Of a DNA stretch of 64,000 nucleotides, positions 1,691-44,308 are shown one piece after another (the first letter of the stretch is position 1; each line of letters opens with the position of its first letter). This DNA comes from Eledone cirrhosa (lineage: Eukaryota), in contig OZ024747.1 of the NCBI GenBank assembly GCA_964016885.1, positions 62,434,001 through 62,498,000 on the forward strand, read 5' to 3'. A program made the translations under genes and the position numbers. Under the pieces are notes generated by a model. The model saw nothing but the letters and a program-made list of their open reading frames with translations, had not been told where the DNA came from and ran no database searches.

Positions 1691-3034
1691 GATTATCATG
1701 ACTGGAATGTTTTGATTCAACAACAACAACAACAGCAACAGCAGCAGCAGCAGCAACAGACGTGTGGTAGACTTAAGCAATCACCCGGTTTAACACCACA
1801 AGCTTTTAGAAGAGTATGTTGCAAGCATTTAGGCCAAGTCTCTCTAGTCTGAGGGTACCCTCTTCCCTCTACCTTCATCTACTTCATCCTCTTACTTTCC
1901 TGGTTCCTCCCCTACCCCTATCACATCAGATTTAGGGTTTATACTCCTTAACTAAACATTAAAAAAACCCAAAGCAGCAAGAACGTTTTTAATATGGCGC
2001 ATACAATTTGTTGAGGCCGTGTAGTACAATGGACAATTACATGAAATCATGGAGTATAACTACTTAGCATTTCTCAGAATATATATATCTTTGTTTTTTT
2101 CACACCAACACTCTGTTGTAATTTGATAATACAATTGCGAGAAAGTTTTTTTATTAAAACTGTCAAATTACATTGGAACGTTTGTATGTTAGAAAAGTCT
2201 TGGCAAATATCATCTTCGATGTTTTCTTTATTATTTGTATTGATGTCAGGAATAAAATGACATATATTAATGGCTCAAGAAAGCGCAGTATTCAAATGTG
2301 TGTTTCATGTTACAGGGAAAGCATCATTTCTTCAACGAGGTCTTCAACTCTGCATGTTTTGCTCATAGCTTCTACCGAACTCCCCAACGAAAATAACAGA
2401 ATTTTGCCTTATTGATAAATTGTTATCATTAGTGTTATACGAAGGTAAGATAGACGCAAGCTTGTGTTGTGCGTGTAAGAAGGAGATACTACATTATCAA
2501 GTGGTTTTTGGTTCAATCTAACTGCATGGAACCTTAGGCAAGTGTTTTCTACTAAAGACTCGGGTTGACTAATGCATTATGAATGAAATTTGGGAAACGG
2601 AACTCGCCGTATATATATATATATATATATATATATATATATATATATATATATATATATATATATATATATATATATAGAGAGAGAGAGAGAGAGAGAG
2701 AGAGAGTCTGTGGTGCTGAGACTGAGGAGATCACTAATCATCGGAGTACTCAATGCATGGGGAAATGCAGAGTGGATATAGAGATATGTAAAATCCCGAC
2801 TGCGGTGCCAAGGTGTTTTGGCTTGTGTTCAGAAAGCCCTATAAAGGGTGTAGACTACTTTCTGTGTGTATATATATATATATATATATATAATATATAT
2901 ATATATATATTATATATATATATATTATATATATATATATAAATTTTAGTACAGCATTAACGAAGCTTTAGAACACGGCCAAGCTAACGAATGCAGAATC
3001 GGTCTGTAGCTTTAGCACTATATATATATATATA

Positions 3035-3203
3035 CAACAAAGAAAGTGTGTTAAGGAACCAAGTGAAACATGATGCACCAGAGTACTCTATACTTAGGGT
3101 AGTAGAGTGGGTAATAGCAAAAGAGTCAGGACCCCGACGGCTGAGCTCGGATCTAACAGTCGAAACGGCCGGGGCTCAGCCGTCGGGGTCATGATTCTTT
3201 TCC
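3035..3203 (-). mobile_element. Short fold-back element between (TA)n tracts; family also at ~6318-6423, 17782-17960, 26366-26455, 29483-29658, 55970-56025
   Basis: Shared GACCCCGACGGCTGAGCTC...GAGCTCAGCCGTCGGGGTC palindrome plus tail containing GTACTCAATACTT...GGTAGTAGAGTGGGTAATAG. Confidence 0.75.
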
Positions 3204-3530
3204 TATATATATATATATATATATAATAAATTAAAGTGTTATCCTCCAGAACCTAAGGTGCTGTGTGGAATCGAACTCATGGTTGTGAGTGGAATACCTT
3301 TCCTCATTTAGACAGATCTGTTCATAAAATACGTAATAGATATAGTAATGAAATATATAAGTAAACTAATTAATAAATGACACTAGAATCACGTCCAGTG
3401 TTTAATTATTTACTTTACTCTCATTTCATTAGGTTATTTACCTTCTTCTCAGACTTGGCTTCAATCATAAAACACTTGGTTCAGTGTTTGTTCATTCGTT
3501 TATATATATTTGCTTTAGAAATCGTTACAT

Positions 3531-4030
3531 GAAATCTCGTTCTTACTAATATTGTAAACCACATTCATCTCACACCGCCTCATAAACCTCGTTCTTAGTA
3601 ACACTGTAAACCACATTTATCTCACCCCACCGCCTCATAAACCTCGTTCTTAGTAACACTGTAATTTAGGTTCATCACACCCCACTACCTTATAAACCTC
3701 GTTCTAAGTAACACTGTAAACCACATTTATCTCACCCCACCGCCCCATAAACCTCGTTCTTAACATCGTAAACCACATTCATCACATCTCACCACCTCCT
3801 AAACCTCCTCATTAGAAACACTGTAATTTAAACTCATCTCACCCCACCACCTCATAAACCTCGTTCTAACATTGTAATTCATATTCACTCCACCCCACCG
3901 GCTCATAAACCTAGTTCTAAGTAACACTCTAAACTGTTGCCATTTCACACACATCCCTCATAAACCTCTTTTAGTAATATTATAAACCATAGCCACTTCA
4001 TGTCTTCCACAAACCTGACTTTTAGTAGCA
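3531..4030. repeat. Diverged ~55-bp minisatellite, ~9 copies
   Basis: AAACCTCGTTCT recurs at 3584, 3639, 3694, 3749 and onward with decay. Confidence 0.9.
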
Positions 4031-41170: not shown

Positions 41171-41360
41171 ATAATTGTTTCTACTTTTGGCACAAGGCCA
41201 GCAATTACCCAGTGCATTACTCGTACTTTATTTTATCGATCTCGTAAGGATGAAAGGCAAAGTTAACCTCGACGGGATTTGAACTCAGACCATAAAGGGC
41301 CGTAACTCTTTGCTGCAAAGTATAGCGTCAGACTCTCTACCGATACAGCCAATCGACCGT
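41171..41360 (-). mobile_element. SINE family 1; further copies at ~33360-33566(-), 41047-41165(+), 41366-41475(-), 41881-42066(+), 43272-43494(+), 47319-47433(-), 56993-57112(-)
   Basis: Match to family consensus. Confidence 0.8.
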
Positions 41361-43589
41361 TGTAAATAATTATTTCTACTTTTAGCACAAGGCCAGCAAT
41401 TATCCCAGTGTATTACTGGTGCTTTATTTTATCGACCCTGTAAGGATGAAAGGAAAAGTTAACCTCGGCGGGATTAACGTACTATTCGTGGTAAATAAAA
41501 ATGTACCGGCGACGCGTTGTGTCCTTGAGCAAGACACTTTATTTCACATTACTCCAGTCCACTCAACTGACAAAAATGAGTTGTGCCTGTAATTCGAAGG
41601 GCCAACCTTGTCACATTCTGTGACACGCTGAATCTCCTTGAGAACTACGTTAAGTGAACGTGTGTCTGTGGAATGCTCAACCACAGACACGTTAATTTCA
41701 TGAGTAGGCGTTGTTCCAGTTGATCCGTTGATCAGATCAACTGGAACACTCCTCGTAACCAACGGAGTGCTAGTCGTCATTAAAGTCGTAGTTGTTGTTA
41801 GTACTGTTGACGTTGCTGTCGCTGATCATGTTGACATTGTTGATTTTGTTGTTATTGCTGTTGCTGTTGTAGTTATATTATTGCAGTAGCGGTAGAGGGT
41901 CGGACGCCATGATTTGACGCATAGAGTTACGGCCCTTGCCATTCTGAGTTCAAATCCCGCCGATGTTAATTTGTCTTTTTCATCCTTACGGGGTCGAGAA
42001 AATAAAGTACCAGTAATGAACTGGGGGTATTTGCTGGCCTTGTGCCAAAAAGTAGAAACAATTATTATTACTATTGGCAGTATTAGTAGTTGTTGTTGTT
42101 GCTGTTGTTGTAGTTGTAGTATTAGTAGTATTAATAGCTGTTACTTTTGTTGTTGTTTTAGGCCCCAGATCAACATTGAGATTGAGAGCAATTATAGTCA
42201 TAGGCGTTACAGCCGTGACCATCTCATCTTTATCCAGACAAAGTACATATATAAAAGTATATATTCTTACACAGCCTTTCTTTCTTAAAGAATCTAATTT
42301 CACCAATCCAGTGTACATGCGTTTCTTATATGGATAAAAGGCAAATGTTTAACTATATTTAGTTATTATATTTAGCTACCCAACTCAATCGTACTATAAA
42401 TAATTTAATATGTTTCATATTTCCTGTATCAATCGGTTATCCGCCTAGTTGATCTTTTCATAGAACCTATGTTGTATATGCTCGGCTGCTATGTAAACTG
42501 AGACAACATACACTATGCTATCCTTATCAGAAACAAAGTGAATAGCTTCCACTGGATTGGAAGATATGACGCACGAATAAACATATCTTCACAACCAACA
42601 TCCACTCGATCATCTCTCTCTCTGTCTGTCTGCGCGCGCGCGCGCGCGTGTGTGTGTGTGTGTGTGTGTGTGTGTGTGTGTGTGTGTGTGTGTGTGTGTG
42701 TGTACGTGTGTGTACGTGTGTGTACGTGTGGGTGTGTATATATGTGTGTATGTGTGTGTGTGTGTTCGTGAAGTTACGTATGTGTGTGTGTCTTAGGGGT
42801 TAGCGTGTTCAGCTGACGATCATAAGGTTATAAGTTCGATTTCCGGAGTTGGATGGTGCCTTTTATTTGCACGTAGCTACCAAAAATGAGTTGTATCTGT
42901 TATTCTGTTATTCAAAATGTCAGACTTGTCACATTCCATACTGTGTCACCCTGAATTCTCCCTCCTCGAATTCTACGTTAGGGGTCAGAAAGAGAGAGAG
43001 AGAGAGCGAGAGAGAGATATGCAGTGGCAGACGACATCTTCCCAAAACTGAGTAGAAAAAATTCTATAGATGATGAACACAACCAAAAGGATATGGTCCG
43101 AACGTCTCAAGATTCGATCATGCGTCCTGGAGGCCAAAGGTTGTTTATTATTCTTTTTCAAATTTTTGGTTGTCAAAATTAGGGCGCGTCTTCGGCGCCG
43201 AGAAATACGGTAATATAAAATGTCAAAATTTCGAAGACTTGATTTTAATACCGTCTAATATTTAATGACATGGAGCAGTGGATTGGCAGTAATCGGTAGA
43301 GCAACGGGCACTGTACTTTGTGGAATATAGTTACGTCCCTTTACGTTCTGAGTTCAAATCCTGTCGAGGTTAGCTGTCTTTCATCCTTACGAAGTCGATG
43401 ATATGAAGTACCAGTAACGCCCTGGGGTCGATTTAATTGACTTTTCCCCATTCTTCCAAATCGTCGGCCTTGTGGGTAATATAGAAACAATTATTTAACG
43501 GTTTATTGAGTTATTTCAGTTGAGAGATGGAAGTGGGCAAAACGATGTTAGTTAATAAAATCAGTTTGTTTTGTAGACAGGGAGAACCT

Positions 43590-43900
43590 CATGCCCCCTC
43601 CTTCTGCTCCTCCTCTTTCCCCACCCCTCCTAATCCTCCTCAGTCTTCTTCTTCTTCTTCTTCTTCTTCTTCTTCTTCTTCTTCTTCTTCTTCTTCTTCT
43701 TCTTCTTCTTCTCCTCCTCCTCTTCCCACTCGTCCCCAGCACTTCTCTTCCTCCCCTTCATCCTTCTTCTTTTCCTCCTTTGCCTTCTTTTTCTTCTCTT
43801 TCATCTTCTCTTCCGATTTTTCTTCCCCTCCTCCTCCCCTTCTTCTTCTTCTCCCCCTCCTCCTCCTCGTCTTCCTCTCCTACTTCCCCCTCCTCCTCTC
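43590..43900. repeat. Polypyrimidine (TTC)/(TCC) tract
   Basis: Direct inspection. Confidence 0.92.
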
Positions 43901-44308
43901 TATTCCCCAGAGACCTAGAAATAACAAAACCTTCTGTCAACGGACATTTGTCATTTCAATCAATTTTCCTCTCAGAATTGTAAGAAAAATAATATTTAAC
44001 TGAATTGCAATTGGATTTTATTACCTCCCGACCGATAATATATCGAATATTTTATCGGTTTCGATGAAAGATCAATTGTATATATGTTAGTTTAATGTAG
44101 TAATCTATTGATTATATATATATATATATATATATATATATATATATATATATATATATATATATATGTGATATATGTGAAAGTTCAATTTAAATATTTG
44201 GGATACAACAAGCAAATATTTTTATAACTGATATAAAGCACTCAACAAATAATTGGAGTAAAAATACGATATTAACAAATGGAAACTATATTTATAAAAC
44301 CATATTTA

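Follow-up and report, generated by a model that had tools for sequence, protein, structure and literature searches.

C-terminal EN+ PLEs of the Hydra clade were described by Craig et al. (2021; PMC8557442), and the elements analyzed here share with them, as the accessible text of that paper presents them, a single ORF of ~710 aa with an RT plus a GIY-YIG domain at its C terminus, the RW[KR] and DKT motifs, a CxCX5C linker, a CxxC and a CxH around the E/N, a pLTR hammerhead (a candidate one in the elements here, by pattern), insertion into (TA)n, an inverted truncated copy, and a one-sided tail. In what is accessible of its main text, this tail is ascribed to EN-mediated resolution, and neither "hairpin" nor "stem-loop" appears. 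A likeness also exists with PAc, the Poseidon-clade PLE of the green anole (Frangieh et al. 2024; PMC11167929), where the RT has two internal starts in vitro whose interval corresponds to the tail, the RT needs RNA located 3' of the start, cleavage and extension take place on both target strands, targets are AT-rich, the RNA template is uncleaved, and a dimer is predicted.

Here, we analyzed a window of 64,000 nt from Eledone cirrhosa (assembly GCA_964016885.1, contig OZ024747.1, positions 62,434,001-62,498,000 of the forward strand), in which an initial annotation had highlighted a conserved linear 10-mer in the tails of unrelated elements. To our knowledge, the choice of template and start site by PLEs, as well as their inverted arm with its one-sided tail, has remained an open question since these structures were described. 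In the elements examined here, insertions end ~6 bases before either member of a pair of hairpins, so this pair likely tells the RT where to start.

The motif and its hairpin

All 11 motif sites that had been claimed are indeed present, correctly placed and oriented, and the distance of ~13-70 nt said to separate them from a tract agrees with the 12-69 nt that we measured to the first simple repeat, which is a (CT)n run at 2745 and a mixed AC/TA run at 40580. The consensus RYYGAGTRCY has 14 matches in the window, with (TA)6+ lying within 100 nt downstream of 12 and upstream of 3, compared with 16% for random non-repeat positions. The predicted strand and positional enrichment around (TA)n tracts is also seen in 1.39 Mb taken from other parts of the genome: an independent sample of 79 x 10 kb yielded 66 matches with a TA tract downstream of 37 and upstream of 4 (background 6.5%), the 11 permuted forms of the GAGT core each had 0-4 downstream hits in the same sample, and a held-out sample of 60 x 10 kb yielded 60 matches with a tract downstream of 38 and upstream of 7. 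Pooled, these samples outside the window show (TA)n within 100 nt downstream of 75 of the 126 matches and upstream of 11; a chance origin of the association is thus ruled out by the background, the core permutations, and the held-out sample. Extrapolation of the 75 tract-linked matches to the 3.0-Gb genome gives roughly 160,000. When k-mers were ranked de novo by enrichment, each flank cluster counting once, the motif stayed outside the top 25, its signal being diluted among 481 clusters that are mostly unrelated.

The description of the underlying elements as unrelated fails for 6340 and 29602, which belong to one family, and for 32444 and 36032, which belong to sister subfamilies; it stands insofar as homology throughout the tails is rejected, BLAST separating them into 30 clusters. 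The strict matches at 21212 and 33699 were discarded as hairpin sites since no tract lies nearby, as was the match at 36748 as a signal, since it falls in a PLE 3' UTR and has no partner box. The motif is not the hammerhead core either, being located 60-110 nt downstream of GAAAY.

What is conserved is not the linear 10-mer itself, which makes up only half of the element: a covarying partner strand sits upstream, and the motif forms the 3' strand of a bulged hairpin of 20-30 nt, RCUC-[stem-loop]-R-UN-GAGY-RC, whose stems covary between families. The hairpin score reaches at least 6 in the median member of 19 of the 30 sequence clusters, versus 2.5 in shuffles (maximum 8, n=500), and only a 2-nt bulge works in this test, bulges of 0, 1, 3, and 4 nt giving 2, 3, 4, and 2 clusters. 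When only the two sequence boxes are anchored, Watson-Crick pairing at upper pairs 1-3 is found in 64, 46, and 32 of 75 stems (34, 23, and 19 when shuffled), and the basal pair alternates between G-C (37 stems) and A-U (27 stems). Counted over an alignment of equal-length hairpins (MAFFT left the stems of unequal-length ones unaligned) and over a second alignment made to fit the model, the share of paired cells is 96.9% and 95.4%, a level seen in 0 of 500 shuffles. A conserved C follows the hairpin at two bases. The hairpin is predicted to be weakly stable (z from -2.4 to +0.3), and its full form is missing from 2 of 11 folds. The polarity of G-U versus A-C modestly favours the sense strand at pairs 1-3 (24:11) and is reversed at pair 4 (2:11), another count giving 2:2, while an antisense control was uninformative, scoring 20 of 37 leaders as positive, the lower stem being self-complementary. 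A covariance model of the hairpin missed the window sites 7957, 16776, and 32444, where hairpins are truncated or variant. Rfam gave no match at E<=1 in three metagenome loci (L255, L263, and L272), and in the window its best 150 of 666 matches are microsatellite artefacts. Relatives were found neither in GTDB genomes nor in IMG/VR contigs, no RNA run was among those listed by a search of sequencing runs, and our literature search found no description of such a hairpin.

Insertion ends, fold-back pairs, and families

The hairpin is located in the 5' leader of (TA)n-targeting Hydra-clade PLEs, usually as two copies, HP1 and HP2, between the hammerhead and the ATG, with HP2 ~20-50 nt before the latter. 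In metagenome leaders, it is found in 28 of 37, and twice in 19 of 37, as opposed to 9 of 110 ORF control windows; two copies also occur in full-length leaders of the E. cirrhosa genome. The 16 nt upstream of hairpins are 74% A+T, and TA(Y) begins at -6 in 29 of 66 metagenome hairpins, when the E. cirrhosa HP1 representatives show no such peak (1/19). Among HP2 copies, that of family B differs by a GCAC-loop-GTGC stem without bulge, that of the family-C reference is decayed, and that of family H is probably a long-loop variant.

The proposal that these elements share a cis signal which helps define PLE 3' ends is supported in that ends map at fixed distances from the hairpin element. Indeed, out of 196 insertion ends that were mapped, 184 lie just 5' of one of the two hairpins: 96 fall in the HP2 window (-14..+2), of which 50 exactly at the mode of -6, and 88 in the HP1 window (-20..+2), more spread and mostly at -6 to -12, the remaining 12 lying outside both. 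These windows, drawn after a first mapping of the ends, contain only 43 of 215 TA dinucleotides, the 172 others being nearly unused. A TA tract adjoins these 196 of 236 mapped ends, the 40 further hits having no callable TA junction. In the metagenome, 8 of 10 3' ends that do not coincide with a contig end stop 1-11 nt before a hairpin. However, the copy of the motif present in an insertion does not define the adjoining end, as had been supposed: that end is set by the second hairpin, further downstream and uncopied. As HP2 is absent from the product and yet fixes the long end, it must act on the template. Repeats also expand at the ends: in family J, (CT)>=4 comes directly after 14 of the 24 long ends and, of the 10 short ends listed (among them 2 mis-sorted long arms), after 5, when the same seed inside long arms carries it in only 2 of 27 cases (0 of 50 in family A), which suggests RT stutter at initiation.

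That the tail occurs on one arm only in fold-back copies was confirmed. Out of 59 fold-back pairs, 20 had an unclassifiable arm, and all 39 others combine one HP1 end with one HP2 end (long+short), with neither long+long nor short+short pairs (p ~2e-12 against independent choice); in a wider, partly selected set, the same holds for 67 of 68. Since each fold-back pairs an HP1 end with an HP2 end, the "tail" (55-105 nt in E. cirrhosa elements) is the interval between the hairpins. Among 67 pairs, it is the short arm that extends further upstream in 26 and the long arm in 14, and in 27 the two reach equally far, so that neither arm is a subset of the other; in 8 cases, the long arm terminates at HP1 or just before reaching it. 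Solo ends are about equally common in short (40) and long (48) form.

These features can be followed in the window. On the minus strand, HP1 of a family J long end (2745..2773) has a 5-bp upper stem and a UU bulge and is followed by 38 nt, (CT)n, and (TA)n; that of family D (5778..5807) comprises a lower stem, a small internal loop, and a 5-bp upper stem; that of family A (6340..6366) sits in a tail shortened by an internal deletion; and another (40580..40602) has a G-U pair in its lower stem. Also on this strand are three fold-back long arms: of family A (17816..17842; inverted repeat 17851-17959), of the 18561 family (18561..18603; 6-bp upper stem, inverted repeat 18610-18956), whose other arm ends just before the hairpin, and of family C (44237..44259; inverted repeat 44269-44638), whose other arm stops ~7 nt before it. 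A family-A-like fold-back copy (3082..3108, minus strand) has a UA bulge; this site, 17816(-), and 25988-26011(+) had escaped the initial annotation. The last of these is an HP1 of a further family (25988..26011), whose lower stem is of the G-C form and whose bulge is UA, with (TA)n following after 46 nt. On the same plus strand, only the 3' strand of HP1 remains in a family K fold-back copy (7957..7966; inverted repeat 7865-7925), with no 5' box within 60 nt, when the hairpin is intact in another copy of this family (L055; 7-bp upper stem). A family-A fold-back long arm (29585..29611, plus; inverted repeat 29483-29575) ends at 29656, which is 6 nt before the HP2 position in a read-through copy (L170). 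The family B long arm at 32444..32453 (plus) begins inside the hairpin, keeping its 3' strand, and is joined to an inverted short arm carrying the hammerhead region; HP1 of a sister subfamily lies at 36020..36041 (plus).

Two insertions on the plus strand retain coding sequence. The first, a 5'-truncated fold-back of the ORF-bearing family H (15486..16797), comprises an inverted short arm (15486-15758), a thumb/GIY-YIG remnant (15728-16513), a hammerhead-like core (~16691-16713), and a variant HP1 (16763..16785, plus) with a 1-nt bulge or 1x2 loop, where the end lies 12 nt past the motif, outside both usual windows. The second, a 5'-truncated copy of the young ORF-bearing family B (36138..39227), carries a GIY-YIG end (36138-36584), a repeat-rich 3' UTR that includes the discarded match at 36748, and a hammerhead-like core near 39148, and ends inside HP1.

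More generally, four families (A, B, C, and H) have RT/GIY-YIG ORFs of their own, which they run into or follow, and show variable 5' ends. Non-autonomous families had been thought to depend on one PLE helper, but 6 of the 11 tails, from these four families, are leaders of RT+GIY-YIG-coding families, and the copies are hence 5'-truncated versions of autonomous elements; with ORF-linked copies and no fixed 5' end, a non-autonomous (retrozyme- or SINE-like) derivation is rejected for A, B, C, and H. Families J, D, and that of 40580 count at least 40 copies each, no ORF link being found in 30 family-J loci, and a genome search for the 18561 family returned no copies. A search for further ORF starts yielded only families M, B, and relatives. 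The coding sequence in L141 is a single unbroken ORF of 713 aa with an RT (YRDD) and, at its C terminus, a GIY-YIG domain (YIG), the Pfam match to the latter being weak (E 0.067), and top matches of its predicted structural model are telomerase RTs (TERT). It has IRWRA and DKT (RW[KR] in 114 and DK[TS] in 119 of 120 homologs) as well as the CxCX5C linker, CxxC, and CxH (113, 116, and 115 of 120), and the GIY-YIG core has no conserved Cys inside (alignment A1), that is, no CCHH. Candidate hammerhead cores of the CUGANGA..GAAAC pattern occur in most leaders, with variant cores in families A, C, J, and M. The assignment to Hydra-clade PLEs rests on motifs.

How the hairpin pair may act

On this basis, we propose, with a probability of about 0.6 and judging from sequence, that each hairpin, in the RNA, places the start of reverse transcription ~6 nt upstream of itself, where a UA(U) anneals to nicked (TA)n, and that both sites are used per event. 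A tandem-derived transcript would carry the leader downstream of the ORF; the GIY-YIG domain would nick both (TA)n strands, and each 3'-OH would pair with the UA(U) that precedes a hairpin; two cDNAs would be primed on opposite target strands by a pair of RT active sites, possibly those of a dimer, and these truncated cDNAs would be joined head to head. The HP2-started arm would then contain HP1 and the spacer (the "tail"), the HP1-started arm neither, and loss of one cDNA would leave a solo long or solo short end. A difficulty is that most pairs copy the same region upstream of HP1 in both arms, for which one RNA needs strand displacement or two templates. More tentatively, this could amount to a programmed twin priming, in which two RT units sit on two hairpins of one transcript, UA(U) is aligned on each nicked strand, a telomerase-like stutter adds repeats, and the cDNAs are joined; no earlier RNA element that positions the RT would then have been defined in the telomerase-related PLEs, and the pair would be a source of the vast microsatellite content of this genome, a fuller reading that we consider possible and somewhat doubtful.

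Other readings have to be weighed against this geometry. The chief alternative would be that the GIY-YIG domain reads the hairpin in sense ssDNA, or in donor DNA as a GCTC..GAGC inverted repeat, and cuts ~6 nt 5' of it, the ends being made by the nuclease while it resolves a longer intermediate. Such cutting, which we hold to be unlikely, predicts the same geometry and agrees with the ORF-bearing copies that begin at HP2 -6 to -9 (L363 and L376). Against it, a bulge of 2 nt together with covarying stems is a typical feature of RNA-protein sites; this reading must also explain the uncut HP1 within every long arm, as well as expansion at the ends and not at the same internal seed, which suggests polymerase stutter. 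In its favor, the bacterial GIY-YIG protein SsnA binds a short ssDNA hairpin, requires that a C directly follow the palindrome, and makes its cut a few nt upstream, according to the accessible text of PMC11893778, and the PLE hairpin also has a conserved C; in addition, papers cited in PMC11167929 and PMC8557442 are reported there, in the text accessible, to find that the D. virilis Penelope endonuclease required the tail for recognition and to ascribe the tail to EN-mediated resolution. Conversely, the RT of PAc starts internally on RNA in vitro (PMC11167929).

Alternatively, the hairpins could be protein-binding sites for RNP assembly or translational autoregulation, the RT merely starting at the nearest unpaired UA-rich stretch. 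Their position in the 5' UTR near the start codon, the A+T richness upstream of them, and the scatter of HP1 ends over ~20 nt fit this possibility, which nonetheless seems decidedly unlikely given the sharp -6 mode at HP2 across families and the nearly unused TA dinucleotides elsewhere, and which does not predict the strict long+short pairing; such a role could, however, coexist with RT positioning. That pairing would be accounted for by a single RT start at HP2 whose cDNA folds back and copies itself, the second arm being joined to the target at HP1 -6 with HP1 as a stop or joining signal; self-priming is proposed for inverted PLE junctions in the accessible text of PMC3846280, and the 27 pairs reaching equally far have arms that meet in a near-palindrome. 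Yet 26 of the 67 short arms hold upstream sequence, sometimes hundreds of bases of it, that the long arm lacks, and so cannot be copies of the long arm; with solo short ends about as common as solo long ones, we judge self-priming to be improbable indeed. As for the original view of a linear motif common to unrelated non-autonomous families that borrow one autonomous PLE, five sites (2745, 5778, 7957, 18561, and 40580) have no demonstrated ORF link, family J included, and a 310-bp hammerhead tandem without ORF (8334-9830) shows a similar end asymmetry. Only 1 of 30 family-A loci runs on into the ORF, however, so the lack of an ORF in 30 family-J loci is expected, and we give very little credence to this view when four families have their own ORFs and the covariation shows a structure.

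Relation to known systems

If the hairpin pair sets the RT start, as seems likely, it would explain the long-puzzling one-sided tail, and the covarying hairpin, the ~6-nt offset, and the one-of-each rule make start choice in PLEs open to direct mutagenesis. Were starts to follow the hairpin, TA-rich DNA could have any RNA that is set 5' of it written in, a prospect of interest for gene-insertion tools; the motif also lets annotators recognize where copies of a very abundant repeat class truly end. As the RTs of PLEs form the sister group to those of telomerases, a docking element beside an alignment sequence bears on the evolution of template definition. In stringent LINEs and SINEs, a 3' RNA stem-loop recruits the RT and a short terminal match aligns template and target; that stem-loop lies 5' of the start and is copied, whereas the PLE hairpin lies 3' of it and is uncopied. 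In L1 twin priming, two primers on opposite strands give an inversion and the second anneals opportunistically, unlike here, where both proposed starts would be fixed by signals.

The likeness to SsnA and the NTS of Neisseria lies in the GIY-YIG fold, a short hairpin with a following C, and an event a few bases 5' (accessible text of PMC11893778), but SsnA is described there as a stand-alone bacterial ssDNA nuclease that ignores RNA. Non-LTR retrozymes and minimal PLE hammerheads are likewise short hammerhead-bearing, PLE-derived pieces (PMC4209133; bioRxiv 10.64898/2026.07.22.740005); leader hairpins are not mentioned in the accessible text of either source, and, unlike the tandem non-autonomous units described there, most pieces here appear to be truncated ends of coding families. 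Relative to the Hydra clade as described in the accessible text of PMC8557442, the tail is here the HP1-HP2 interval, and some elements have a 3' UTR of more than 1 kb. Support from PAc is by analogy, as it comes from Poseidon, another clade than Hydra: its RT starts within an ORF-internal, AC-rich stem-loop described as lacking homology to the target, and no conserved element present in duplicate is named (PMC11167929), whereas the putative starts here would lie in the 5' UTR, at a UA(U) matching (TA)n, just 5' of a duplicated covarying hairpin.

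Motif and hairpin at (TA)n tracts

The conserved RTYGAGTRCY-like motif that the initial annotation placed at 11 positions of the window, which is of 32% GC, rich in (TA)n and drawn from a 3.0-Gb assembly, was found at each of them, and its occurrence is more extensive than noted. Within the window, 14 strict matches to RYYGAGTRCY have a TA tract at most 100 nt downstream in 12 cases and upstream in 3 (background 16%), and in a genome sample of 79 evenly spaced 10-kb stretches the tract lies downstream of 37 of the 66 matches and upstream of 4 (background 6.5%); 11 permuted motif cores gave 0–4 downstream matches each in the same sample. 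With 38 downstream versus 7 upstream cases among 60 matches in a held-out 600 kb, the downstream bias is borne out beyond the window. A 49-bp satellite and coincidental hits account for some of the remaining matches.

The conserved unit, however, is not the linear motif first described but a hairpin of which this motif forms only one half: ACTC is found 5' of GAGT, the intervening bases pair across a 2-nt bulge, and the upper stem differs family by family. A hairpin score of at least 6 is reached by 19 of 30 BLAST clusters, some singletons among which are probably chance matches (median member of each cluster; 500 shuffles, mean 2.5, maximum 8), and alternative bulge sizes of 0, 1, 3, and 4 nt yield 2, 3, 4, and 2 clusters. 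In order to avoid circularity, a second stem test was anchored on two sequence boxes only, using 75 distinct stems from the Eledone cirrhosa genome and metagenomes: upper pairs 1–3 are Watson–Crick in 64, 46, and 32 stems, versus 34, 23, and 19 after shuffling and 4–7 in slid controls, in counts that include related families and leave their kinship in. The basal pair of these stems is G–C in 37 and A–U in 27, and formal pair counts are concordant with the test. The minimum-energy fold shows both stems in 9 of 11 folded examples, with weak z-scores, and a covariance model built on 12 examples recovers 8 of the 11 initial sites along with extra ones at 3082, 17816, and 25988.

Carrier elements and their leaders

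A young family (family B), whose best-scored 150 copies are 97–100% identical, is the source of the GIY-YIG remnant at 36141, and the sequence seen at 32444 and 36032 stands 5' of the unbroken 713-aa ORF of this family (locus L141). A second coding family (L146, L147) has as its leader the tail seen at 16776; the family of 6340 and 29602 (family A) lies 3' of a GIY-YIG ORF plus a 1.25-kb UTR in L039 and continues into an ORF in L170, and that of 44237 is found 3' of GIY-YIG ORFs in two loci (L034, L052) and 5' of one in L215. Because their sequences adjoin these ORFs, four coding families account for 6 of the 11 sites, each of them a truncated 3' end. The proposed link to Penelope-like elements (PLEs) stands, and for these six the picture of non-autonomous families served by one PLE helper gives way to families with their own ORFs. 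Judging from its sequence, the encoded protein carries the motifs defining the (TA)n-targeting Hydra clade, as given in the consulted part of PMC8557442. Of 8000 scored sequences, 1404 count as its homologs at E≤1e-30, and the structures nearest to its predicted model (pLDDT 88.6) are telomerase reverse transcriptases (RTs). Degenerate TA/TG repeat makes up ~1.6 kb of the family B 3' UTR (36585–39227) and moves with the element.

A profile scan of metagenome contigs returned 77 loci, with an ORF start placeable in 37, and at least one hairpin was detected in 28 of these 37 leaders and two in 19, against 9 of 110 control windows within ORFs; several of the nine negative leaders are not intact. 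These hairpins, almost always of the form GCTC-Y..R-TN-GAGC-ACT, are sited between the hammerhead core and the ATG. Full-length leaders of the E. cirrhosa genome likewise hold two hairpins, hereafter HP1 and HP2 from 5' to 3'. In family B, HP2 is a GCAC/GTGC stem lacking the bulge; the reference of the 44237 family has a decayed copy, and the family of 16776 a putative long-loop variant.

Other repeats share the window. A satellite of 29 copies of a 58-bp unit (96% matches) occupies 3–1688, and a transposase remnant, presumably Mariner/Tc1-like, spans 4767–5630 between 70-bp inverted repeats (4804–4873 and 5555–5624). At 8334–9830, 310-bp hammerhead-bearing units, 100% identical and retrozyme-like, form direct and inverted arrays with no ORF of at least 100 aa; a degenerate short GAGC-type stem is included at one end and the opposite end falls immediately short of it, which echoes the two end types described below. 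Another PLE family left a GIY-YIG remnant at 44857–46768, whose UTR measures 1.4 kb and whose hammerhead-like core is a variant; it ends at TA and lacks the hairpin. A strict-pattern search found no motif in the TA-flanked fold-back repeats at 27461–28319, 59118–60054, and 60958–61518. At 60878, ATTGAGTTCT lies 45 nt 5' of a TA tract and belongs to a repeated family (7 copies in sample and window) with an ambiguous 5' partner box. A LINE-type RT ORF fragment at 63407–64000 is one we take to be RTE-like.

Insertion ends and fold-back pairing

Ends were mapped onto seven natural read-through leaders, using copies from a 1.39-Mb sample and the window, and 196 of 236 mapped matches adjoin a TA tract. 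Among these 196, 96 ends fall from −14 to +2 of HP2 (50 exactly at −6, that is, 6 nt 5' of the hairpin), 88 from −20 to +2 of HP1, and the other 12 outside both intervals, which were picked after earlier end mapping had been inspected and contain 43 of the 215 TA dinucleotides of the references. In family B, the HP2 anchor lies 3 nt before the stem, so that its ends stand at −9 to −4. It follows that the initial motif is HP1 within long ends, those stopping near HP2, and the long end is positioned by a hairpin itself absent from the copy. As for the suggested signal for 3' end definition and RT/endonuclease recognition, its first part agrees with ends that track the hairpins (184 of 196 in the two intervals), and the second is a putative role. 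In the metagenomes, 8 of 10 ends away from a contig end stop 1–11 nt 5' of a hairpin (from 24 loci, 5 being without a repeat, 8 ending with the contig, and 1 continuing as a tandem), and TA(Y) starts at −6 in 29 of 66 hairpins versus 1 of 19 HP1 representatives of the E. cirrhosa genome. Some ORF-bearing copies (L363, L376) have their 5' end 6–9 nt before HP2, the same spot as long 3' ends. In three metagenome loci (L258, L270, L306), the TA site is shared with a second element, whose hairpin-bearing end faces the other way, like nested clusters in the E. cirrhosa genome.

Fold-back insertions, which have two inverted arms, pair one long arm with one short arm stopping near HP1: among 59 pairs from the random sample and window, all 39 with both arms classifiable do so (19.5 expected under independence), as do 67 of 68 in a wider set that takes in loci picked for a long arm and has one window copy entered twice. 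Arms without a partner number 48 long and 40 short.

Hairpins and the setting of ends

The structure (by covariation), its duplication, the end positions, and the pairing rule are directly supported, and the genomic evidence is strong that the hairpins have a role in setting insertion ends. We propose that they would act in RNA, each docking one RT so that UA(U), ~6 nt upstream, base-pairs with the nicked target; both would be used in a single event on opposite target strands, and the two cDNAs would be joined head to head. The main rival is that the GIY-YIG domain recognizes the hairpin and cuts at the DNA level, thereby setting the ends, for which the Neisseria nuclease SsnA may serve as an analogy (consulted part of PMC11893778). 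G–U polarity favors the sense strand only modestly and leaves RNA and sense single-stranded DNA unseparated. Self-primed fold-back, one arm being copied from the other, has been proposed as well (consulted part of PMC3846280), but the upstream reach of the short arm is the greater in 26 pairs (that of the long one in 14, equal in 27), and in 8 cases the long arm ends at HP1 or slightly before reaching it; with such unequal reach neither arm is copied from the other, and this speaks against the simple form of that proposal.

In families A and B (e.g., 29483–29575 and 17851–17959), fold-back centers cluster 60–70 nt 5' of HP1, where they coincide with stem II of the hammerhead and lie past the predicted cleavage site; the template was therefore probably uncleaved, and both cDNAs probably stalled at the same structure. 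In the family of site 2745, (CT)n is present after 14 of 24 long ends and, among the 10 short ends listed (two really being long arms), after 5; the same (CT) seed is expanded in 2 of 27 cases inside its long arms and in 0 of 50 family A ends. This pattern fits RT stutter at initiation on both arms, or may stem from later slippage beside (TA)n.

On sequence grounds, the paired hairpin would be a cis-acting structure new to an already known class of elements. The Hydra clade, its hammerhead, (TA)n preference and tail, and dual initiation in PAc, the Poseidon-clade PLE of the green anole, are already published (consulted parts of PMC8557442 and PMC11167929); a search of the open-access literature turned up neither a paired hairpin in the leader, nor a −6 rule, nor a one-of-each rule. 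According to the consulted part of PMC11167929, reverse transcription by PAc in vitro begins at two internal sites, one on either side of the tail, and depends on RNA lying 3' of the start, with both strands being cut and extended. The mechanism proposed here for the Hydra clade would be alike in its two internal starts bracketing the tail, seen in vitro for PAc and read here from genomic ends.
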